From: Candidatus Marinacidobacterales bacterium
Lineage (GTDB): Bacteria; Acidobacteriota; Vicinamibacteria; Marinacidobacterales; DATDRI01
Assembly (NCBI GenBank): GCA_965226495.1
Contig: OZ245365.1
Location: forward strand, 1 to 64,000
DNA: 64,000 nt
Direction of reading: 5' to 3'
In this document: piece by piece, positions 6,741-33,675 of the stretch
Layout: each line of letters opens with the position of its first letter
Position numbering within the stretch: position 1 is the stretch's first letter
Program-made: the position numbers and the translations under genes
Notes under the pieces: generated by a model
The model's input: the letters and a program-made list of their open reading frames with translations, nothing else
Told to the model about the DNA's origin: nothing
The model's database searches: none

Positions 6741-7150
6741 GCTGAAGAAGGGTCGGGAGGTGATCGCTCGGTACCGTCAACGATTCCCGAGCGCGATGAA
6801 GTGCATGGAAGAGACCCTCGAAGCGTGTCTTCAGGCGCTACGCCTTCCTGCGGCGCATCACAAAAGGCTTCGCACGTCGAATCTACTTGAGCGCACGTTC
6901 GGAGAGCACAAACGTCGCACAAAGGTCATTCCTCACTTCTTCACCGAGGAGGCCGCGATGAAACTCTCGTTCGCTGTGCTCTTGGCCGTCGCAAACAAAT
7001 GGCGCGGCGTGAGGATGGATGTCTTCGCCGCTAGGAAAGTCGAGGAGCTTCGCAACGAGCTTCTCCCGCAAGGCACGTCGGAGGAATCAGCAGCTTAAAC
7101 CGAGCGCGGGGAACCGTACGGAGATTTGACAGGAAAATTAAGACTTGACC
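6741..7150 (+). mobile_element. IS256-family 3' fragment, preceded by end D (6718-6740)
   Basis: RLRTSNLLERTFGEHKRRTKVIPHF motif. Confidence 0.8.
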
Positions 7151-7318
7151 GTTCTCGAAATTCGCAGAGACCAGCCGACGCCGCACTGGCTCTGTGATAG
7201 GCGCTCCCGAGCAGACCTCTCATTCTAGCTCCCATTGCCAACCAAACCTAGACACCTCATAATCCGAAACGTCCCGGCGCGCAGGCCTTGGGTTCGTTTG
7301 TATTTTTGGACACGACGG
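7150..7318. repeat. Probable MITE with CGT termini
   Basis: Left part matches the reverse complement of about 5207-5278; right part matches 1640-1689. Confidence 0.55.
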
Positions 7319-7426
7319 CTAGAGTGGCGGTTCAACAACAGGAAGAACGGCCATATCTTCCGCGATACGTTACGACGCATCATGGCTACCGAGACCCTTA
7401 CCTACAAGAAACTGACGGCAGCCTAG
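7319..7426 (+). pseudogene. IS1595-family transposase C-terminal fragment
   Basis: EWRFNNRKN..IFRDTL...LTYKKLT. Confidence 0.65.
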
Positions 7427-7448
7427 GAGACGTCGGAAAGTCCAGGCG

Positions 7449-23903: not shown

Positions 23904-24063
23904 TGCCTTGGTGCATAAATACAGGTAAATCATTGATTCCATTGACTCTGCGATTTTTGGCCCAAAAACGTAACCTGCTGATTTCTTTAGAGTTATCCAG
24001 AGTTATGCACCAAGGCACTGATTTATCGGCTATTTCAAGAGGGCCGAGTTTTGGCACAGGACG
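23904..24063. mobile_element. MITE C (23904-24017) nested against a TIR-B end (24018-24063)
   Basis: Sequence identity to the other copies. Confidence 0.85.
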
Positions 24064-24953
24064 GGGATTGGTACACGTTTCTGAGCACCCGACCGGACAT
24101 AGATGAGGTGAACTTCTGGCAACCGAGCGGCGGGCGCCGTTTCCGAAGCTTGGATATCGGTGATCCCTTTCTGTTTAAACTGCACCATCCGGAAAATTAC
24201 ATCGCAGGCGGCGGTTTCTTCGGACGGTTCGTTCAAGCGCCCTCGCGCCTCGCATGGGACGCGTTCGGCGAGAAAAACGGCGCTCCTTCGTATGACGCGA
24301 TGCGAGCGCGCATCGAAAAGTACCGACGAGAATCCCTCGCGCCCCATGACGATTACACCATCGGTTGCATCCTGCTGCAGCAACCCTTCTTCTTGGACAG
24401 AGCGGACTGGATCCCAGCTCCGGCTGATTTCAAAAAAAACATCGTTCAGGGGAAAGGGTACGACTTGAGCAGTGACGTCGGCCGTGAGCTCTGGGAAGCG
24501 GTGCAGGCGAAGCTCACCGTCGCTCACGCCGTCACCGCTGGCGAGCCAGCTCCCATGTACGGCGATCCTGTGCTAGTGAAGCAGCGCCTTGGTCAGGGAA
24601 CGTTTCGACTCGCGGTGACCGACATCTATGAGAAACGGTGCGCGGTGACTGGCGAGAAGGTCCTTCCTGTATTGGAAGCCGCCCATATCCAGCCTGTAAG
24701 TGTGGGTGGAATGCATAGCGTGGATAACGGCGTCCTCTTGCGATCGGACGTCCACACCCTATTCGATCAAGGGTACGTGACGGTAACGCCGAATTTCGAA
24801 GTCCGCGTGAGCTCGCGTCTACGAGACGAGTTCCACAATGGCAAGCATTACTACCGATTCGAGGGGCGCGCGATCTGGCTGCCGAAGACTGAGGCCGAGC
24901 GACCCAATCGAGAGTTTCTTGAATGGCACGGCGACAGTGTCTTTCGAGGGTGA
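24051..24953 (+). CDS. HNH endonuclease with putative PUA-like N-terminal domain; native start replaced by TIR-B
   Basis: DEVNFWQP..FLFKLH..GGGFF; RLGQGTFR..CAVTG..LEAAHI..NGVLLRSDVHTLFD. Confidence 0.85.
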   Translation: MAQDGDWYTFLSTRPDIDEVNFWQPSGGRRFRSLDIGDPFLFKLHHPENYIAGGGFFGRFVQAPSRLAWDAFGEKNGAPSYDAMRARIEKYRRESLAPHDDYTIGCILLQQPFFLDRADWIPAPADFKKNIVQGKGYDLSSDVGRELWEAVQAKLTVAHAVTAGEPAPMYGDPVLVKQRLGQGTFRLAVTDIYEKRCAVTGEKVLPVLEAAHIQPVSVGGMHSVDNGVLLRSDVHTLFDQGYVTVTPNFEVRVSSRLRDEFHNGKHYYRFEGRAIWLPKTEAERPNREFLEWHGDSVFRG

Positions 24954-25692: not shown

Positions 25693-26538
25693 CTACTCTC
25701 CCGCGATAGTCTCCGCGAGCCACGCTGTTAACTCGGGGTAGACCGCAAGGTCGAGGACGAACTCTTGCCCTTTTGCGACGACACTCAGATGAGCGCGTTG
25801 GCCCTTCAGCGTCCAACGGTCTAATGAGCCGTGATACGTCAAAGGAGGTCGTCCGCTCGGTAGGAACCCGCTGGGCAAGGACCATTCCGAGGCATTCTTC
25901 GCCCCTTGCGCGGTTAGGCGTCGCTTGTCCGAGGCGAATTCGAAAACGCCAAACCCGCGAATCGCGCCTACATCTACGCCTGGCAACGAGAGTGCCTTAT
26001 TCGCGACGTAGAGCGTGTTCGTCGGATCTGGCGGGAATGCTAGGTGAGGATGGGCTTGGGCCCATCGCCACTCGCTACCACCGCTACGAACGACGTCGTC
26101 GACTGGAGCTACGTCGCCGACCTGCAGCCAGCCCCAAACATGATGTTCTGGCCGTCCCAATTTCCTCAACTCGTCGTCTACTGGCTGAAACGAGCCCCAG
26201 AAGAGGAAGACGTCGCCAACGCCGACGCCTTGATTTCGAAGGTGACCTTGAGCGGCTCTGTGTTGACCCAACGTTGCCCGCCATCCTGGATTTCGAGGAG
26301 CTAGGTTTCTCACAAGATCTGGGTCGAGGTGTGCGCGATAGTCGCTTCTCTGTTTGCCGCGAGTCAGTTTTGCGACGACGTCTCCAAGGTTGCGCCCGCG
26401 CCAGGTCAGGTCTTTGTAGCGCACCGGCGAACGCTTGTCCGGGATCGGAAGGGAGATCATCGAGCCGTCCGGGAAAATGGGACTCGGGCATCCGCCGCTC
26501 GACGAGTCGAATCCCTTCCGGCTCAAGATTAGCCGCAT
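25693..26538 (-). CDS. Nucleotide modification associated domain 3 (Nmad3) protein
   Basis: ILSRKGFDSSSGGCPSPIFPDG..SLPIP..HLDPDL..GQ..AQGHL..GDVFLFWG..HPH..GQEFV. Confidence 0.8.
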   Translation of the reverse strand: MRLILSRKGFDSSSGGCPSPIFPDGSMISLPIPDKRSPVRYKDLTWRGRNLGDVVAKLTRGKQRSDYRAHLDPDLVRNLAPRNPGWRATLGQHRAAQGHLRNQGVGVGDVFLFWGSFQPVDDELRKLGRPEHHVWGWLQVGDVAPVDDVVRSGGSEWRWAQAHPHLAFPPDPTNTLYVANKALSLPGVDVGAIRGFGVFEFASDKRRLTAQGAKNASEWSLPSGFLPSGRPPLTYHGSLDRWTLKGQRAHLSVVAKGQEFVLDLAVYPELTAWLAETIAGE

Positions 26539-27155
26539 CGCGTCTTTCCCGGTTGCCAGGAGGTGTCGTCCGTGGGCCAGTGCCTCGGTTGGCCCCGAAT
26601 ACCTTGTGGTCGAGCTTTCAAAAAATCGAGGAGAGCCGACTTCTCCTCATCAGTGAAGTTCAGGCGGTTGAACCGAGCGGGCGGTTGAAAGGCGACGTGC
26701 GCGGGAAACGGCACAGCATCTCCGCCGTAGTAGCAGAACCGTTTCGCGACCAGGACACGCTCGCCGTTGAGGTCGTGGGCCATTCCCCTTTTGTCCTCGC
26801 GGTCGTTCTTGTGATCCCAATGCTGCGACCGAAGTTGTCGGAAATCGCCGTCGCCTATTGGTGCGTAACAGTTGTCGCCGCATTTATCCACGATTGGTGC
26901 TCCTTTGCGCCAACGCGGACGCTTGGACCTGAATCTGCGATCCGACCAATACTCTTCGAACGTAAGCGACTCATCCACCCTCATGGCATAAGCGAGATGG
27001 TTGTCGAGCTTCCTCGGCGTAATTCCGACGATCCAGTCTCCTGGACGCGCCTTTCGCCGGATGGCGGGCTTGCAGCACGCGAGCGTGCACCAGCCAAAGA
27101 ACGGATTCGGCGCGAAGCCTGAGTCGGCTTTGAGGATGTACGCGTAGATACGCAC
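26529..27155 (-). CDS. Nucleotide modification associated domain 2 (Nmad2) protein
   Basis: YILKADSGFAPNPFFGWCTLACCKPAIRR..GDWIVG..GDNCY. Confidence 0.85.
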   Translation of the reverse strand: MRIYAYILKADSGFAPNPFFGWCTLACCKPAIRRKARPGDWIVGITPRKLDNHLAYAMRVDESLTFEEYWSDRRFRSKRPRWRKGAPIVDKCGDNCYAPIGDGDFRQLRSQHWDHKNDREDKRGMAHDLNGERVLVAKRFCYYGGDAVPFPAHVAFQPPARFNRLNFTDEEKSALLDFLKARPQGIRGQPRHWPTDDTSWQPGKTRCG

Positions 27156-27231: not shown

Positions 27232-28317
27232 GGCGTTGTTGCACGGCCCGGAGCAAATCGCTGACCTCCCTGTGCCGGTTGCAGAGTCACCCGGCGCAGT
27301 ACGTATCGGGCATCCCGAGCGCAGCCATCTTGTTGAGTATCTCGCACCCAATTCGGTGTTCAACTCGTTGCCTCGCCAACGTTCGTGTCCGCATCTCGGG
27401 CCCGATGATCGCTTTGTAACGATAGACCGCGTTCTCCACCATGCTTCGCTTGGTGCAGCCTGAGAGCTTGTACCATTCACGTCGGCCGTGTCTTTCGATG
27501 GCACGAATATGGCGGTCGCGCTCCTGCATGGCGGTGTTCGAATTCTGATTGAGCGTCGCGTTTCGTTGCGGCGGAATCACCACGCGCGTCCTTCGTCCAG
27601 GACTGTGCGCTTCGATGGCTTCGTAGACCGCTTCCTTGTCGTATGCACTGTCCGCCGCCACCGACACTAGAGGTGCTTGAATCTGTGTTAGCAAAGCGGG
27701 GACTCGGGTTGCGTCGCGAGCTCGTGACGCCGTCAGTTCGGACGCAACAATGTTCCCTGTCTCGCGATCAACGGCGATGTGCAACTTGCGCCATGCGCGC
27801 TGCTTTGGCGGTTTGCGGGCGGTTCCGACATGAATCCTCAAGCCCGTGCTATCGATCATCAGGTGGATGGGTTGAGTGCTCGCGGCTTTCGGAATCCGCA
27901 GCTTCTTGCGGAGCAACCTTGAGCGCCGACACAACGTCGAGTAGTCCGGTATCTCGATACCGAGCCCGAGAAGCGAGGCGATCGAGTGCAAGAAGCCTTC
28001 GGTTTGTCGGTAGGCGAGCTTGTACACCATCCGGACAACCAGGCCCGTTTCAATCGCCATGTCTGAATAGACCCGTTGACCGCCAGGCTTACCGGTCTTG
28101 TCGGCCTTCCAGTTCGCGATTGCCTCCTCGTCAAAACCAGACTGTCAAATCGCCCCGGCGGCGCAGCCCTTCGTTGTATTCCGCCCAGTTGCGAACGTGG
28201 TACTTCTTCTGCTTCGCGTGCTTGTACTGGCAGCGCTTGGGATACTTCATGCTCGAACATAACCTCGCCACCACCATAGGCGGATTTCGCTCTCAGCCAG
28301 AGCGGTGCAACAACGCC
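27232..28317 (-). mobile_element. IS5-family (IS903 group) element, second copy, frameshifted
   Basis: Same TIRs as 13093-14177; one extra base in a homopolymer near 28135. Confidence 0.9.
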
Positions 28318-29003
28318 CGTTCGAGCTGAAGAACAGCCTCACCAAGCAGACGGTCGAGGACGCCACAGAGCAGTACAAGCGTGACCGCGACCCTCGTGAG
28401 AAGCTCTTCGAGTTCGGCCGCTGCGTGGCGCACTTCGCGGTGGACGACCACGCGGTGCAGTTCTGCACGCACCTCAATGGAAAGGGCTCGTGGTTTCTGC
28501 CCTTCAACCAGGGCTGGAACGACGGCGCCGGGAACCCGCCGAATCCGGATGGCCTCAAGACCGACTACCTGTGGAAGCGGATTCTCACTCGCGACGGGCT
28601 GACGGACATACTGGAGAACTACACGCAGGTCGTCGAGACCAAGGATGAGAAGACGGGCAAGAAGAGGAGGAAGCAGATCTGGCCGCGCTACCACCAGCTC
28701 AACGTGGTGCGACGGTTGCTGGCCGACACGCGCCGGCATGGCGCAGGGAAGCGGTATCTCATCCAGCACTCGGCCGGTAGCGGGAAGTCCAACTCCATCG
28801 CTTGGCTCGCCCACCAGTTGATTGGGCTGCGGAAGGACGCTGCCGGGGTGTTCGACTCCATCATCGTGGTCACGGACAGACGCATCCTCGACCGGCAGAT
28901 TTGCGACACGATCAAGCAGTTCGCCCAGGTCGGGGCCACCGTCGGCCATGCCGAACGCTCGGCCAACCTCCGCATGTTTATCGAGAGCGGCAAGAAGATC
29001 ATC
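28318..29003 (+). pseudogene. hsdR: Type I restriction subunit HsdR, N-terminal fragment
   Basis: FELKN..QY, PRYHQ, QHSAGSGKS, VVTDRRILDRQ. Confidence 0.85.
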
Positions 29004-29598
29004 ATCTTCTTGAGGATGTTCGAGAGGCGGTCGAGTTCGGCTTCCGGCCTGTGGCCGCCGCCGTTAGTCGGAACCGGCTCGATCTCCGCGTCCTCGTCCG
29101 CCAGTTGGACGTGTCTCGCCGCCTTCTTCTCGACCCGGTAGCTGTCCATGTCGATGGATTCAAGAATGCCTTTGGACAGATCCTCTTCCACGGGCGCGGG
29201 GAGCTTCGGTACGAGGAAGTTCAGGAAGATAGAGAGCTTCTCCCACTCGGCGTTCGTGTACGGCAGGATTGAGGCGAGGAAGCCGTACGCGCGCTCGAAC
29301 GCCTTGGCCTTGCCTTTGAAGTCTACCTGCCCGTCCTCGTCGAGCTGCTCCTTGTAGAACGCGACGCAGGCGTCGAGGATGGGGTCGAGCTGGTCGCGGT
29401 CCGCCCCATCCAGGTAGAGCGTCACGAGCTGGTCGATCTTCGTGTCGGCATACACCTGATAGCCGTCGAGCGCGGCCTTGAGGTCGTGTAGCTTGTTGGG
29501 ATCGGTCTCCTCGCTGAGGACCGTCGTCCGGTAGTAGTCAGCAAATGCCTCTTGGATGGTGTCGGCATCGTTCATGAAGTCGAACACGAACGCGTCGT
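29004..29598 (-). pseudogene. hsdR: Type I restriction subunit HsdR, C-terminal fragment, inverted
   Basis: FVFDFMND..IQEAFADYY..TDPNKLHDL..F.RAYGFLASILPY. Confidence 0.75.
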
Positions 29599-29863
29599 TC
29601 ATTTCTGAGAGATTTCGGGAACGAATCAGTTGCGATCGGCCTGCATGCGATAGCGGAGGTGCTGCAGTGATCTGCGTTTCCCCATTTGCACCGGGGAGGG
29701 CGACTCCTCGAACAGCCGTCAGAAGCACTTGCAGCGGTGCGTGAGAGCCTCGTGGCAGGAGGGGTGGGTGTCAAATCTCTGGCGGCTGATAGGTCGGAGG
29801 CTGCTAGGCAAGTTCGCGCGAAGAGTACAGTGAGCAGTTCGAGATCGGCGAGCTAGGGGGGCG

Positions 29864-31009
29864 CTACCGCGGCGGCAATGCCGACTCCCCGAGCCCATGG
29901 CTCCGGGTTGGTACCGGTGGTATCCGACGAACCCAATACATCCGCTGGCCGTCGCGGTCCAGGAGAGGATCGATTCCGAAACTCTCCTTTATGGAGGCCG
30001 CCCACCGCAATCGCCGCGGCTTCCCCAACCGCAGCTGTCCCAAGAGCGCGAAGACCGCGTCATGGGTGTGGCTCTTCACGCGAGGCGCGAGAAGACCGAA
30101 GTATCGGATGTTGTGCCGGTAGCGGTCGGAGACATGATCGGCCAGGGCAGCCAAAAACTCAGCTGGCGTGTAAGTGGTCTCGACCATCTGTCTCGTGCGC
30201 GTGTCCTTCGTCAAAAATTGGATTTCTTGACCGTCAATCTTCCGGAACCGGTGTTGTGCAATCGGGGGGCGTCGGGCGTAGCGGCCTGCATATCCCAGGA
30301 ACTGCTTCTTGCTCCGAAACCGCTGGATGTTGATGTTCCACCACCGTTCGTACTGCTCCTTGAGCAATTGCAGCAATGCGCGGCGAGTCATGTCGGTGTC
30401 CAGGACGCCGGCCCGAGCGGCTTTCCGCAGAAGCGTGATGACCGCGTAGCGCCACATCGGCATCAGAGCCTTCCGGTCTAATGAAGCTCTCTTACGCCAT
30501 CGAGCTCCATCCTCACGGAGGCCACCCTCGGAGACCAAGATGTGCAGGTGGCTGTTGAAATTCAGGTGACGGCCGTAAGTGTGAGGAATCACGACAATCA
30601 TGAGTCGGACGCCGTATTTTTGCCGCGCCCACTGCTGCAGCACCTGTGCGCCCAGGACGGGCAGATCGTGCAGGAGATGCCGGTTGCGCTGGAACAGCGG
30701 CCAGAGCAGATCCGGCATGGTCAAGCAGACGTGGGCGTACGGGACATCGGGCAGCTCCCTCCACTGGTCGCGTTGCCAGGCGCGGGTCGCCTGATACCCA
30801 CAGCTGGGACAGGCCCTTGATTTACAGGTGTGATAGACCACCCGTTCTTCACGGTCCGACGCAAAGACTTCCGCACCGAGGGCCTTGGTACCGCAATCGA
30901 TCACTTTGGCGAACGCCTCCCTCACGGCGGGACGAGTCTCGTCGCAATCCCAGACCTCCCGATGCGTCTTCAAGATCTGTCTGAGCGGTCGCGAGCGAGC
31001 AGAAGTCAT
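29864..31009 (-). CDS. IS91-family Y2 (HUH) rolling-circle transposase-like protein
   Basis: CKSRACPSCG zinc-binding motif, HTYG..NSHLH (HUH), YAGRY (Y2), IRYFG; ATG overlaps the upstream stop. Confidence 0.88.
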   Translation of the reverse strand: MTSARSRPLRQILKTHREVWDCDETRPAVREAFAKVIDCGTKALGAEVFASDREERVVYHTCKSRACPSCGYQATRAWQRDQWRELPDVPYAHVCLTMPDLLWPLFQRNRHLLHDLPVLGAQVLQQWARQKYGVRLMIVVIPHTYGRHLNFNSHLHILVSEGGLREDGARWRKRASLDRKALMPMWRYAVITLLRKAARAGVLDTDMTRRALLQLLKEQYERWWNINIQRFRSKKQFLGYAGRYARRPPIAQHRFRKIDGQEIQFLTKDTRTRQMVETTYTPAEFLAALADHVSDRYRHNIRYFGLLAPRVKSHTHDAVFALLGQLRLGKPRRLRWAASIKESFGIDPLLDRDGQRMYWVRRIPPVPTRSHGLGESALPPR

Positions 31010-31959
31010 CGAGGGTTGTTCTCCAGCAGCTCGTCGTAGCACGCTCGCGTCACCACCACGGCGCGCCCTGGAACCTCGGCGACGGCCACGGTGATGTCGT
31101 CCGCGTCGAGCTTCGCGAGTCCGCCGAGCACGATGGGCGCCACGTCGTCGACCGGTCGGACAGAATCACCAGCTTCGATGTGCGCTTTGACCAGCCGGTC
31201 GATCGTCTTCTTGATGGTCCCTCGATGCAGATGGTCCCACAAGGCATCGCTTTGCTTCTTCGGGGACAGTTTCCTCCACTGCCAGGCCCGATGGATGCTG
31301 ACCTCGCCTCGCAGGAGCTGTTCCTGAACTTCGGGAATCACGCTGTCCAAGAGCTGCTTGGTTTTGGTCACGTTGCCGCTCGAAACACCGGCGATGCGGG
31401 CGATGTCTCTCCGTACGTCTCTGCGCGTGTCGTTCGTCAAATTTGACGACGGCGTGTCGTTGCCTCTCGCCAACTGCGGTCGACCGCGGCGTTCCCGGAA
31501 GTACGGCTCCAGATGCAAGGCCAGCACGATGCGGCCATAGGCGTTGAGGCCGTCTGAGGCCCGGTGCCGTTGGAGCACGACCTGCAGAGCCTCCTCCTCG
31601 GACAGCTCGTATTCGAGGCAGGGCAGCATCGGCTGTGCCCGTTCGATCGCCACCTGCCACCGCGCGTATCCGTCAAGAATGATGTCGTCCGTCGTCGTCA
31701 ACAACGGCTCGTGGAGCGGCCCAGGCTGCTGACCCACCCGCCACGCCCTTGTCGCAGCGAGCGGTCGGCACAGCTTTTGGTAGACCGGATGCGGGCGCAA
31801 CGACGTGGTGGAGCGATCGACCAATCGAGGCCGAGACGAGCCATCATGACGCTCGGAGGTGTCGGCAACAGCGTCGCGCCGAGTGTCCCCGCCGTCCAGG
31901 CGCGCGACGCCCGGCAGGTCGGAGGACTTGCCGGGGCTGAGTATTGAGCGCGTGGTCAT
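31006..31959 (-). CDS. ParB-like protein with HTH
   Basis: LRPHP..PLL..IILDGYARW..A; IARIAGVSSGNV HTH. Confidence 0.7.
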   Translation of the reverse strand: MTTRSILSPGKSSDLPGVARLDGGDTRRDAVADTSERHDGSSRPRLVDRSTTSLRPHPVYQKLCRPLAATRAWRVGQQPGPLHEPLLTTTDDIILDGYARWQVAIERAQPMLPCLEYELSEEEALQVVLQRHRASDGLNAYGRIVLALHLEPYFRERRGRPQLARGNDTPSSNLTNDTRRDVRRDIARIAGVSSGNVTKTKQLLDSVIPEVQEQLLRGEVSIHRAWQWRKLSPKKQSDALWDHLHRGTIKKTIDRLVKAHIEAGDSVRPVDDVAPIVLGGLAKLDADDITVAVAEVPGRAVVVTRACYDELLENNPR

Positions 31960-32198
31960 GGCTGGGGTTGCTGCTCCGGGGAAGCAGTCTTTCCGCGCTT
32001 GTCAAACTGCCCAGTCAGCCAGACGTTCACCTCGGCTTCGGCCGAAGTCGACCAGGTCTGCCAGTGGCCACCAGCCCACGTTCCCGTCTGTCCGGAGGCA
32101 CAACATCTAATTAGGTTAAATGCTTGTGGCAGCGTGAAGTCCAACGTCCCGCGCACCTGCTCCACAGTGGCTGTGAGCCGATGATTCAGATGAGGCAT
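31956..32198 (-). CDS. Small hypothetical protein
   Basis: 80-aa ORF, ATGA-coupled to the ParB-like gene. Confidence 0.5.
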   Translation of the reverse strand: MPHLNHRLTATVEQVRGTLDFTLPQAFNLIRCCASGQTGTWAGGHWQTWSTSAEAEVNVWLTGQFDKRGKTASPEQQPQP

Positions 32199-32231
32199 GA
32201 CCTGAACCGCGTTGAATCAGCGAAGGTCCTG

Positions 32232-32501
32232 CTACCGGCGGCCATCGATCGTCTGGCGTTCCAATTCCAGGCGTGCCACCAGGGCGCGTATCTCATCGTC
32301 GGTCCTGCCGGCGATCCGCGCGGCGTTAACGGCGGACACTTCGCCAGCCGGCCAACCCACGGCGCGAGCACCAAGGCTCACAGGTTTTGGCCAGAGGCCT
32401 TGGGCGATACGCAGGTACAACGTAGAGCGCGGATAGCCGGATTCAGCTTGAACTTGCTTGCGTCGGAAAATTGCCAGCGTCGAGTAAGAGAACTGTGCCA
32501 T
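32232..32501 (-). CDS. alpA: AlpA family regulator / excisionase
   Basis: RRKQV..SGYPRSTLYLRIAQGLWPKPVSLGARAVGWP..EV. Confidence 0.88.
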   Translation of the reverse strand: MAQFSYSTLAIFRRKQVQAESGYPRSTLYLRIAQGLWPKPVSLGARAVGWPAGEVSAVNAARIAGRTDDEIRALVARLELERQTIDGRR

Positions 32502-32580
32502 GTCTTGCCCCTTGTGGAGCGTTCCCGGCTCATCCGGGGAACGACATGGCGATCAGAGCATGGGCGAGGCCGTGCGTGGT

Positions 32581-32614
32581 CGCAATTGCGGAAACTTCTT
32601 CCGCAATTGCGGAA
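32581..32614. promoter_or_regulatory. Tandem palindromes, putative operator upstream of alpA
   Basis: CGCAATTGCG (32581-32590) and perfect TTCCGCAATTGCGGAA (32599-32614). Confidence 0.5.
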
Positions 32615-33349
32615 CTAGTTGGAGATCTTACCTCGTCGTTCAAGAGCGTCGGGGATGCGTTTCAGGTGGTCTTCGATGGTGCGCGCAGAAACCCTTGCGC
32701 GAAGCCCTATGGTCTGCGCCTCAATGACTTCACCCGCTTTAGACGCCTTGGAGATGTCAATGTTCGCCGCACGAGCAAGTGCGGCAATGATGGTCAAGAG
32801 CGTTGCCCGCTCGCGCTGCTCCAGAGGTTTATCGAGAGGATCCATGGTGTCGCCCGGTTTCGACGGTTGTTGTTCTTCGGGCCCGAGTGAAGGTGAAGCA
32901 AGGCTGGCAGCGACCGCGTCGAGGGCCTGGGGTCGGACCACGAGCAGACTGCCGACATCGAACGACGTGTCAAAACTGGAAAATAGTTGATAGACCACGT
33001 CATCCTTCCCCGTGACGTATGCCACCGGAATGTCGAATACCTCCACACGGGTGTCGAGCTTGACGTTGGGCAGCCCACACCTCGCTCGGTACCGGGTTTC
33101 TAACTCAGGGCGAACAGGGCCTTTCAGGAGGAGATCCCACACTCCTTCAACCTTTTCCGACTCGGCTCCCTCACAGTCTTGGATTGCTGTCATGGGTTTC
33201 AGGAGATTCACAGACAGTTGAAGCTTGCCATCCAGGCCCAGTCGGAGAATGTCATCCTCGTCAACATCGACGCCGGTCTCGGAAGACAGGTAATCTGCTG
33301 CCTCGTCGAGGTTCAACCACTCGCGGAGCTTCCAAAGGTTAGAAGTCAT
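32615..33349 (-). CDS. Island-associated hypothetical protein
   Basis: KLREWLNLDEAADYLS HTH-like start; ATGA overlap with the integrase stub stop. Confidence 0.7.
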   Translation of the reverse strand: MTSNLWKLREWLNLDEAADYLSSETGVDVDEDDILRLGLDGKLQLSVNLLKPMTAIQDCEGAESEKVEGVWDLLLKGPVRPELETRYRARCGLPNVKLDTRVEVFDIPVAYVTGKDDVVYQLFSSFDTSFDVGSLLVVRPQALDAVAASLASPSLGPEEQQPSKPGDTMDPLDKPLEQRERATLLTIIAALARAANIDISKASKAGEVIEAQTIGLRARVSARTIEDHLKRIPDALERRGKISN

Positions 33350-33480
33350 GCCCGGATCGCCACAATACCAGCCGGTGTCGAGGTGGCAAATCTGGCCCAC
33401 GACTCCATCAAGGCTCGACGACGCTCAAACAGGTCCGTGCGGCGATACGCCGCCTCGGTCTTGTCACGTACATGGGTCGG
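33346..33480 (-). pseudogene. P4-like tyrosine integrase, C-terminal stub
   Basis: H..DKTEAAYRRTDLFERRRALMESWA; the rest of the gene is absent. Confidence 0.75.
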
Positions 33481-33589
33481 GTCCTGAGAGCACTCCAGAC
33501 CCATGATGGCCGCCTCGCTGAATCGCCGGCTCGCTTCATCAACGTCTATGAACAAATCAGGAAGACAGGAGGCTCGGGCGGCAGCACGA

Positions 33590-33675
33590 TGGCGGAGGGA
33601 GAGGGATTCGAACCCCCGGACCTCTCGGTCAACGGTTTTCAAGACCGCCGCCTTAAACCGCTCGGCCATCCCTCC
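33590..33675 (-). tRNA. tRNA-Ser (anticodon UGA)
   Basis: GGAGGGATGGCCGAGCGGTTTAAGGCGGCGGTCT-TGA-AAACCG..GGTTCGAATCC..TCCCTCCGCCA; variable arm; encoded CCA. Confidence 0.95.

Follow-up and report, generated by a model that had tools for sequence, protein, structure and literature searches.

What is an IS91-type HUH gene doing at the end of a row of genes that begins beside a tRNA-Ser gene? The row lies between positions 29,597 and 33,675 of the 64,000-nucleotide stretch of Candidatus Marinacidobacterales DNA analyzed here (the whole stretch is called the window), where the tRNA gene is followed by an integrase stub, an open reading frame (ORF), a gene of the AlpA family, a doubtful second ORF, a gene for a ParB-like protein and, last, the HUH gene. 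A left end of the order tRNA-int-orf-alpA is the layout of P4/CP4-57 tRNA islands and of PICI-like satellites, and a previous reading, made from the sequence alone (the sequence-only reading), had accordingly placed the HUH gene in the replication-gene slot of such a satellite. That placement was not supported by comparison with relatives of the block, which have an IS91-type right end beside target tetranucleotides, no att repeats, and units of ~2.5 kb made of the ParB-like and HUH genes. A conserved end motif, the IS91 target signature, and the absence of att repeats together argue for an IS91-family transposon core and not for a P4/PICI-like island that has taken up a foreign Rep gene. We thus propose, with a probability of about 0.62, that a composite rolling-circle transposon of the IS91 family, with a ParB-like accessory subunit, has left a decayed copy here.

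Judged by its sequence, the HUH protein is of the IS91 type and not of the ISCR type. It scored 249.2 bits against the NCBIfam model of IS91-family transposases (NF033538; cut-off, 125) versus 34.2 bits against the model of ISCR clade Ia (cut-off, 925), and Pfam recognized both Y2_Tnp (PF04986; 3.1e-35) and the zinc-binding domain Zn_Tnp_IS91 (PF14319; 4.6e-16). The protein thus combines a Y2 HUH and a zinc domain above the curated cut-off with the HxH and YxxxY motifs, and residues C67, C70, H154, H156, Y240, and Y244 were invariant in an alignment of 23 sequences (the window and 22 relatives), so that the intact zinc, HUH, and YxxxY motifs attributed earlier to the last gene are confirmed. 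Homologues are numerous, many of them at 57 to 97% identity, with 1554 proteins at an E value of ≤0.001 among 8000 candidates scored, and the ParB-like protein likewise has many homologues. On plasmids, the HUH protein matched only annotated IS91-family transposases, at 33 to 36% identity over 90 to 98% of its length, and the ParB-like protein had no match on 72,556 plasmids; in the HUH tree, a quick tree only, a long branch separates the clade from two plasmid IS91-family proteins.

The relatives come from species-representative genomes scanned once with the 23-sequence HUH alignment, which gave 183 candidate stretches, 159 of them confirmed; the public loci analyzed here, L001 to L080, are the best 80 of these 159. 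Their hosts are mainly Acidobacteriota (Vicinamibacterales, Ca. Marinacidobacterales, Bryobacterales, and Terriglobales), and some are Rhodospirillaceae, Micropepsaceae, Gemmatimonadota, Dormiibacterota, Chloroflexota, or Tectimicrobiota. At least two loci were present in each of 10 assemblies, with seven in one metagenome-assembled genome of the Rhodospirillaceae. What emerges is a large clade, mainly of soil and marine Acidobacteriota, in which the transposase has an obligatory companion of the ParB fold as its predicted binding partner.

Downstream of the HUH gene and on its coding strand, these elements carry an end motif with the consensus GAAAT..(A/G)TTTTTG(A/T)TTTTCCTATAGAT, at a distance of 76 to 855 bp (median to the end of the motif, ~250). 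The 19-nt core of this motif, with up to 4 substitutions, occurs within 1 kb downstream of HUH and on the same strand in 62 of the 73 evaluable sequences, and a fuzzy 30-mer recovers it in 66 of 81. An alignment of downstream regions had been suggested in the sequence-only reading; the window copy itself shows only a degenerate remnant of the motif. Upstream of HUH, the motif was seen only as stray or orphan copies (L008, L013, L048, L050, and L051). An annotated IS91-family transposase gene on a Shigella plasmid is followed ~150 nt downstream by a motif of the same type, TTTTTCAATTTCCTATACGT, and this TTTCCTATA-type end is common to that copy and the clade. Moreover, homology between recent copies (L001/L003 and L011/L012) ends at the motif.

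The 4 nt that follow the motif (n = 62) are CAAG (18 cases), CGAG (9), AGAT (8), TGAA (7), TTAA (4), GAAC (4), or others (12), and the third position is A in 59 of 62, against a background frequency of 0.205. Read on the opposite strand, CAAG, CGAG, and GAAC become CTTG, CTCG, and GTTC, with T at the second position; such a target/cleavage signature is reported for IS91, IS801, and IS1294 in PMC13181058. In the window, the GAAC read from 29600 to 29597, at the junction with an hsdR fragment, fits this IS91 target. No flanking repeats that would indicate a target duplication were found in the L001/L003 and L011/L012 pairs or in 17 of 18 tRNA-adjacent loci, and the left end showed neither an inverted right-end motif nor a copy resembling it. 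Further copies of the motif stand without an adjacent HUH gene, namely five in a row on one strand in L014 (11392-17118) and single ones in L005 (13361 and 16645), L018 (17264), L039 (11893), L050 (6363 and 9170 on the minus strand), and L065 (4392); these may be orphan ends, tandem insertions, or nonautonomous derivatives.

Mobility of the unit can be followed in the closest relatives. The quick HUH tree places the window in one group with L001, L003, L025, L002, and L020, all from Ca. Marinacidobacterales, and the order stub-orf244-AlpA-orf80-ParB-HUH recurs in L001, L003, L025, and L027. Three sites are known for this 4.48-kb unit: L003 and L027 have it behind tRNA-Ser(GCT), L025 has it behind tRNA-Ser(TGA), on a tRNA side syntenic with the window (86%), and L001 and L002 have it at a site that is not a tRNA gene. 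The element of the window subfamily starts with TTTAAATGCTGTAAAC at all three sites, and the left end of the L001/L003-type unit starts with TTTAAATGCTG. The L001 and L003 copies lie on one chromosome and are 98.4% identical over 4478 bp, up to the motif, from which we conclude that the six-ORF unit moved without an intact integrase; the suspicion that the HUH protein drives the mobility of the whole block was justified. The stub of the window recurs in L001, L003, L025, and L027, and since no copy differs in this respect, the unit spread after loss of the integrase. A second pair, L011 and L012, is 99.7% identical over ~5.2 kb, again up to the motif, with unrelated right flanks. At the site in L002 that is orthologous to that of L001, the upstream module is replaced, and an IS200-like Y1 transposase gene is present (7088-7438, minus strand; Pfam Y1_Tnp, 7.2e-32).

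What the family conserves as its core is an operon of two genes, with the ParB-like gene translationally coupled to the Y2 HUH gene. Among the 67 loci evaluable for this purpose (HUH N terminus present and 1.1 kb or more of sequence upstream), tblastn found a ParB-like gene directly upstream, on the same strand and within 1.3 kb of HUH, in all except L020, L047, L061, L072, and L075 (62/67), and the stop of the first gene overlaps the start of the second as NTGA in 35 of 64 loci. The pairwise identities of both proteins are correlated (Spearman rho, 0.74; 57 loci), versus 0.28 for AlpA and HUH, 0.45 for the tyrosine recombinase and HUH, and 0.0 for AlpA and the recombinase; the minimal units consist of both genes only (L052, L054, L056, and L058). 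The earlier view that HUH is no independent insertion sequence therefore holds as far as its tie to the ParB-like gene is concerned, but the coupling from which it was argued does not speak against an insertion sequence, since in IS91 itself the stop of the upstream orf121 overlaps the start of tnpA, according to PMC13181058. In the same paper, Orf121 is described as restraining transposition, improving termination, and lowering one-ended transposition, and the accessory ORF is regarded as particular to IS91 itself. Small hypothetical ORFs were also seen just 5' of tnpA in annotated IS91-family plasmid copies from Shigella (L081, 700-888) and Pseudomonas syringae (L082, 1678-2223), and upstream accessory ORFs may thus be commoner in the IS91 family than an IS91-only view allows. 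A literature search that did not extend to ISfinder or TnPedia returned no description of a pairing of IS91 with a ParB-like protein; some IS91-family entries presumably have an upstream integrase ORF.

The ParB-like label given to this gene from its sequence is borne out by the fold of its product. Searches of Pfam and NCBIfam gave no match and PHROG no useful one, a profile of 38 homologues reached ParB among PDB sequences weakly (E value, 0.022), and Pfam ParB_N was matched in 7 of the 38 members (best E value, 0.025). With the AlphaFold2 model (pLDDT, 76.6), the top Foldseek matches were Noc, ParB, and KorB (E values, 8.7e-07 to 1e-05; 200 to 235 columns; probability, 1.0), and the layout is that of a ParB/Srx-type N domain, a helix-turn-helix, and a long C-terminal helix. 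The model thus supports a ParB N-domain fold with a helix-turn-helix as the predicted likeness to ParB, Noc, and KorB. Unlike these proteins, the ParB-like sequence lies under the Pfam threshold, no ParA-like partner was matched among the ORFs of the block in a Pfam scan, and its companion is a transposase. Moreover, in an HMM alignment to 7bnk, the GERRWRA box pairs with DGhaRWqvA and keeps a single Arg; CTP binding, which the arginine-rich GERRxRA box would suggest, is thus doubtful for a protein with DGHARWQVA in its place.

A complex of the ParB-like and HUH proteins, predicted with alignments built in this analysis, reached a score of 0.77, which is a model confidence and not a measurement, against 0.00 for the best of three controls; of 157 solved complexes, 116 attain this mark, compared with only 2 among 215 mismatched pairs. 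At least 58% of the contacts were in common between runs, with a partner pLDDT of at least 70, and the predicted interface brings HUH residues 111 to 130 and 185 to 202 against the long helix of the ParB-like protein (241 to 264). These predictions support a binding of the ParB-like protein to the transposase.

Upstream of this core, the gene content varies. Among 117 ORFs taken from 24 loci and scanned with Pfam, full P4-type integrases (Arm-DNA-bind_3, Phage_int_M, and Phage_integrase) were encoded upstream of and co-oriented with HUH in L004, L005, L007, L014, L016, L018, L022, L038, and L039, and partial ones were encoded in L013 and L019; other tyrosine integrases lie on the opposite strand in L009, L060, L066, and L080, and L011 encodes a large serine recombinase. 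A tblastn panel of recombinases and AlpA proteins, applied to the 7 kb that flank the core on either side, detected tyrosine recombinases (coverage of at least 0.6) upstream in 27 loci and downstream in none, serine recombinases upstream in 4 (one outside the unit) and downstream in 1, and AlpA upstream in 21 and downstream in none. Scoring homologues for such genes had been proposed earlier, and a full upstream integrase with AlpA beside a tRNA is indeed frequent in relatives. In 21 of the 80 public loci, AlpA is the immediate upstream neighbor of the ParB-like gene, at -1050 to -1800. The module labels are scattered on the quick HUH tree (24 changes versus a shuffled mean of 27.6), and this scatter, together with the one-sided position of the modules, indicates that recombinase and AlpA genes are real companions of the core, yet often exchanged.

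The search for att sites gave one positive case. Direct repeats of tRNA 3' ends of at least 12 nt within 12 kb downstream were absent in 17 of the 18 loci tested, the exception being L009, where the gene pair lies inside a 10.3-kb island bounded by a tRNA-Thr repeat of at least 40 nt. In 10 integrase loci, comparison of the 700 nt upstream of the integrase with the 2.5 kb downstream of HUH gave only chance matches of 11 to 13 nt, and no repeat of the tRNA 3' region longer than 10 nt occurs in the window, those of 10 nt being at unrelated places.

The left ends have a signature of their own. All seven resolved left junctions, from three subfamilies, directly follow a tRNA or tRNA-like sequence ending in CCA, with the flank TCCGCCA in L003/L027, L025/window, and L001/L002, the flank GAGCCA in L011, L012, and L024, and a tRNA-Arg in L054/L058. 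In at least 14 loci, a recombinase gene begins ~80 to 320 nt after the tRNA 3' end, all co-oriented with HUH. A scan for T-arm plus acceptor sequences gave 41 matches upstream and 9 downstream of HUH; ten of these matches were 1 to 2 kb 5' of the HUH start, eight of which are inverted 3' parts of tRNA genes at the extreme left of the unit. Such inverted parts (T-arm, acceptor, and CCA), ~850 to 1280 nt upstream of the HUH start, form the outermost left edge of the ParB-HUH units of L052 (8699-8746), L056, L073, L062, L067, L032, L076, L077, and L078. In L052, L056, and L073 it is a common truncated half of tRNA-Arg(CCG), beyond which the DNA differs, and L073 has an inverted copy of its own left-end motif, TCAAATCAATCACTTACCC, directly left of the inverted tRNA fragment (~2355-2381), so that the motif adjoins CCA on both sides of the fragment. 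Cleavage in the tRNA T-loop (GTTC) was considered and rejected, the boundaries being at the CCA end and not in the loop.

We propose a model of transposition for these elements by analogy with IS91. The HUH transposase would nick at the right end, one strand would be displaced leftward through the transposase gene, and a second cleavage at the poorly conserved left end would free a single-stranded circle, which may then insert beside CTTG, CTCG, or GTTC without target duplication. The ParB-like protein would take the place of Orf121 as an accessory subunit, translationally coupled to the transposase and binding to it and probably also to DNA. Termination further to the left, i.e., one-ended transposition, could carry upstream DNA along with the core, which would leave integrases, serine recombinases, and AlpA upstream only and in varying combinations. 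The likeness to IS91 proper includes the Y2 HUH protein with its zinc N domain, the overlap of an upstream ORF with the transposase start, a conserved end downstream of tnpA beside CTTG, GTTC, or CTCG (read on the opposite strand) without target duplication, and a poorly defined other end with upstream DNA carried along, as IS91 is described in PMC13181058. The clade is unlike IS91 in the low identity of its HUH proteins to annotated IS91-family transposases noted above, in an accessory protein of 280 to 370 aa with a ParB fold versus the 121-aa Orf121, in the frequent recombinase and AlpA genes, in left ends at tRNA CCA, and in its mainly acidobacterial hosts.

Several observations weigh against this model as it stands. 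The CCA left junctions resemble site-specific targeting and not random capture, so that simple IS91 logic is insufficient; the constant position of AlpA immediately 5' of the ParB-like gene is not predicted by random capture, nor is the co-orientation of tRNA and HUH in the tRNA-recombinase loci by random island insertion. No left-end sequence similar to the right-end motif was found, the tree support is that of a quick tree, and the recombinase/AlpA panel was drawn from the same loci and could miss unrelated downstream recombinases. Neither a transposition intermediate nor an empty site was seen. The CCA junctions, the T-arm and acceptor matches, and the position of AlpA leave room for targeting by the ParB-like and HUH proteins or for cooperation with recombinases. 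A doubtful extension would be that both proteins form a two-subunit rolling-circle transposase whose ParB-like subunit directs cleavage or insertion to the 3' CCA ends of tRNA genes and tRNA-like remnants. If so, an IS91-type element would home to integrase hot spots and repeatedly fuse there with integrase, AlpA, and serine-recombinase modules, giving hybrid elements movable by either route and a target-directed relative of IS91, a behavior not known to be described for the family. To our knowledge, only four IS91-family elements have been demonstrated to transpose.

The rival explanation closest to the sequence-only reading is a tRNA-anchored integrative element of the P4/CP4-57/PICI type, in which the integrase and AlpA would excise and integrate the element, HUH would replicate the excised circle in rolling-circle mode from the motif downstream of its gene, and the ParB-like protein would act as a partition or loading factor. 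Such an element would account for the full-length and partial integrases upstream, for AlpA (called by Pfam or tblastn) between the integrase and the ParB-like gene in L005, L013, L016, and L039 (24 loci scanned), for the tRNA-recombinase succession, and for the island of L009; the order tRNA, integrase, small ORF, and AlpA is present in L004, L007, L016, L018, L039, and L046, with a remnant of it in the window, and IS91-type proteins can act as replication initiators, to which the title of Wang et al. 2018 on SNJ1 RepA (reference list of PMC6563490) relates. This explanation is nevertheless unlikely, for the motif lies at the unit boundary beside IS91-type tetranucleotides and not internally like a replication origin, no attR repeat follows it, units with a 41-aa stub or without a recombinase were still duplicated or spread, the recombinase and AlpA types are incongruent with the HUH tree and with each other, and no primase, helicase, or ParA gene appeared in Pfam scans of the block and of 24 loci. 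In the window, the AlpA gene and the tRNA adjacency are those of a P4/PICI-type element, but the integrase is reduced to residues 436 to 476 of 476, att repeats are lacking, and none of the six ORFs matches a replication module in Pfam, NCBIfam, or PHROG; unlike that layout, the block, whose subfamily retains 41 integrase residues, ends in an IS91-type right boundary.

Both activities could also be combined in a hybrid cycle, where HUH makes a circle joining right and left ends that a recombinase, in cis or in trans, integrates at tRNA 3' ends, the circle junction or the left end serving as attP. The CCA junctions would fit (7/7, including the pseudosites of L012 and of L001/L002, with only the last 6 to 7 nt in common), as would the serine recombinase encoded by L011 and L012, an enzyme that requires no long repeat. 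A precedent exists in GIsul2, whose integrase mobilizes the CR2-sul2 unit and can thus move an ISCR-related unit; one end of this island holds a P4-type integrase gene and alpA, the opposite end an IS91/ISCR-type gene (PMC9376610). According to the same paper, GIsul2 has three att sites with a common core and inserts at guaA, whereas no att cores were found in the clade, whose HUH protein is IS91-type and has a ParB-like partner. The hybrid cycle seems quite improbable, in that HUH-type tetranucleotides stand in the right flanks where the other half of an attB would be expected, L011 and L012 differ entirely in their right flanks, the stub-only subfamily occupies three different sites, and the recombinase-free L052, L054, L056, and L058 have the same ends. 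Least probable is an integrative mobilizable element in which HUH is a relaxase, the motif an oriT hijacking a conjugative pore, and the ParB-like protein a relaxosome accessory. Y2 HUH chemistry is common to relaxases, small DNA-binding accessory proteins are typical of relaxosomes, and NCBIfam gave subthreshold matches to MobF (E value, 0.027; 14.1 bits, cut-off 100) and MobQ (E value, 0.081), yet these matches are far under the cut-off and that of the IS91 model far over it; several copies per genome, the boundary position of the motif beside target tetranucleotides, and the lack of a match to the ParB-like protein among the plasmids searched speak further against it. The composite IS91-family transposon hence remains our preferred explanation, and the clade shows a rolling-circle transposon joined physically to site-specific recombinase modules next to tRNA genes, which bears on the building of genomic islands and on gene pickup by IS91/ISCR-type elements.

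Six co-oriented ORFs with three ATGA overlaps had been described after the tRNA-Ser gene, and this description is confirmed by ARAGORN, Rfam, and the ORF coordinates. The ORFs, all on the minus strand, span 33346-33669, 32615-33400 (internal ATG at 33349), 32232-32501, 31956-32198, 31006-31959, and 29864-31042 (internal ATG at 31009), so that with the internal ATGs the stop/start overlaps fall at 33346-33349, 31956-31959, and 31006-31009; the upper part of the first ORF is spurious and overlaps the tRNA. The features retained are the following.

Features of the tRNA-Ser block, with positions in the window and the evidence for each
Feature	Position	Strand	Evidence
tRNA-Ser(TGA), host gene in the flank outside the element	33590..33675	-	ARAGORN; Rfam tRNA, 59.1 bits; syntenic with L025
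Noncoding, tRNA to integrase stub	33472..33589	-	Homology of the window to L025/L001 from 33588
P4-type tyrosine integrase remnant, last 41 codons	33349..33471 (stop codon 33346-33348)	-	BLASTP; NCBIfam
orf244, hypothetical protein	32615..33349	-	tblastn, close relatives only; fast-evolving
AlpA-family small helix-turn-helix protein, excisionase/transcription regulator type	32232..32501	-	Pfam Phage_AlpA PF05930, 2.9e-10
orf80, doubtful ORF	31956..32198	-	Without family match in Pfam, NCBIfam, or PHROG
ParB-like accessory protein	31006..31959	-	Foldseek fold match; linkage to HUH; complex prediction
IS91-family Y2 HUH transposase with N-terminal zinc-binding domain, HxH, and YxxxY	29864..31009	-	NCBIfam NF033538; Pfam
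3' terminal noncoding region of the element	29601..29863	-	Homology to L004 runs to 29758; end motif a degenerate remnant
GAAC, junction with the hsdR fragment, tetranucleotide expected for an IS91-type end	29597..29600	-	Sequence; start of HsdR homology at 29596

The stub was rightly taken for an integrase, of the P4 type, of which only the last 41 of 476 residues are left: it is 78% identical (BLASTP) to residues 436 to 476 of the 476-aa integrase of L007 and matches the NCBIfam integrase-domain model at profile positions 367 to 400 of 413 (E value, 0.003). The AlpA assignment (PF05930) was equally sound. By tblastn, orf244 is 63 to 71% identical in L001, L003, L025, and L027 and 41% identical in L007; it has no Pfam, NCBIfam, or PHROG family, and its nearest Atlas clusters are all unnamed. 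The dN/dS ratios against relatives are 0.16 to 0.21 for HUH, 0.34 to 0.41 for the ParB-like gene, 0.14 to 0.36 for AlpA, 0.56 to 1.48 for orf244, and 0.71 for orf80 (versus L025). Given these high ratios for orf244 and orf80 and the breakage of orf80 in relatives (split in L027, with only 27 codons left in L001), neither is a well-supported gene. The AlpA genes of the window (32232-32501) and L025 (8509-8775) differ by a dS of 0.014, versus 0.25 to 0.47 for HUH and the ParB-like gene between the same loci, which makes the element a mosaic and suggests that copies have recombined.

The copy present in the window is a fossil beside a tRNA, in a rearranged restriction-gene region. Decay had been attributed to the integrase only, which proved too narrow: the 3' CCA end of the tRNA-Ser adjoins a truncated left side that lacks ~378 bp of the sequence found between the tRNA CCA and the stub in L025, L001, L003, and L027, and the window has no match to the 19-nt motif core at up to 4 substitutions. 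This copy is thus probably immobile by itself, its AlpA, ParB-like, and HUH reading frames being intact. Homology to relatives on the right side fades after 29843-29758, and the element extends to about 29601, leaving 263 nt between its end and the HUH stop, compared with 288 to 299 nt in close relatives; the proposal of 29600-29863 as a candidate end is therefore close to the terminal region found here. The 23 nt before 29601 were considered as a divergent real end motif, agreed by eye at 9 of 19 positions, and were counted as absent or degenerate.

The break of hsdR, earlier put near 29598, is now set by minus-strand HsdR homology that starts from codon D45 at 29596, with GAAC before it. The hsdR region (28305-29596) is split into two oppositely oriented parts joined at ~29006-29009. 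HsdR residues 175 to 403 are covered by the plus-strand part (28320-29006), and residues 704 to 907 of a 1006-aa homologue by the minus-strand part (29596-29009), with 74% identity to a Meiothermus plasmid HsdR by tblastn. The opposed strands and the loss of residues 404 to 703 and of both protein ends imply an inversion plus deletions beside the element; the minus-strand fragment gave nothing in PDB or NCBIfam searches. An IS5-family transposase gene (27287-28060, minus strand; NCBIfam NF033579, 196.6 bits) adjoins the truncated 5' side of the hsdR fragment. Two neighboring minus-strand genes at 25693-27155 encode the nucleotide-modification-associated domains Nmad3 (4.9e-76) and Nmad2 (2.9e-52) of Pfam, and L002 contains a stretch 70% identical to this region. 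Finally, a repeat of ~49 nt, 90 to 100% identical and in both orientations, is present in the window (24018-24066), in L001 (3774-3822), at four places in L025, and in L027, L020, L002, and L003, and looks like a repeat of the REP or MITE type.

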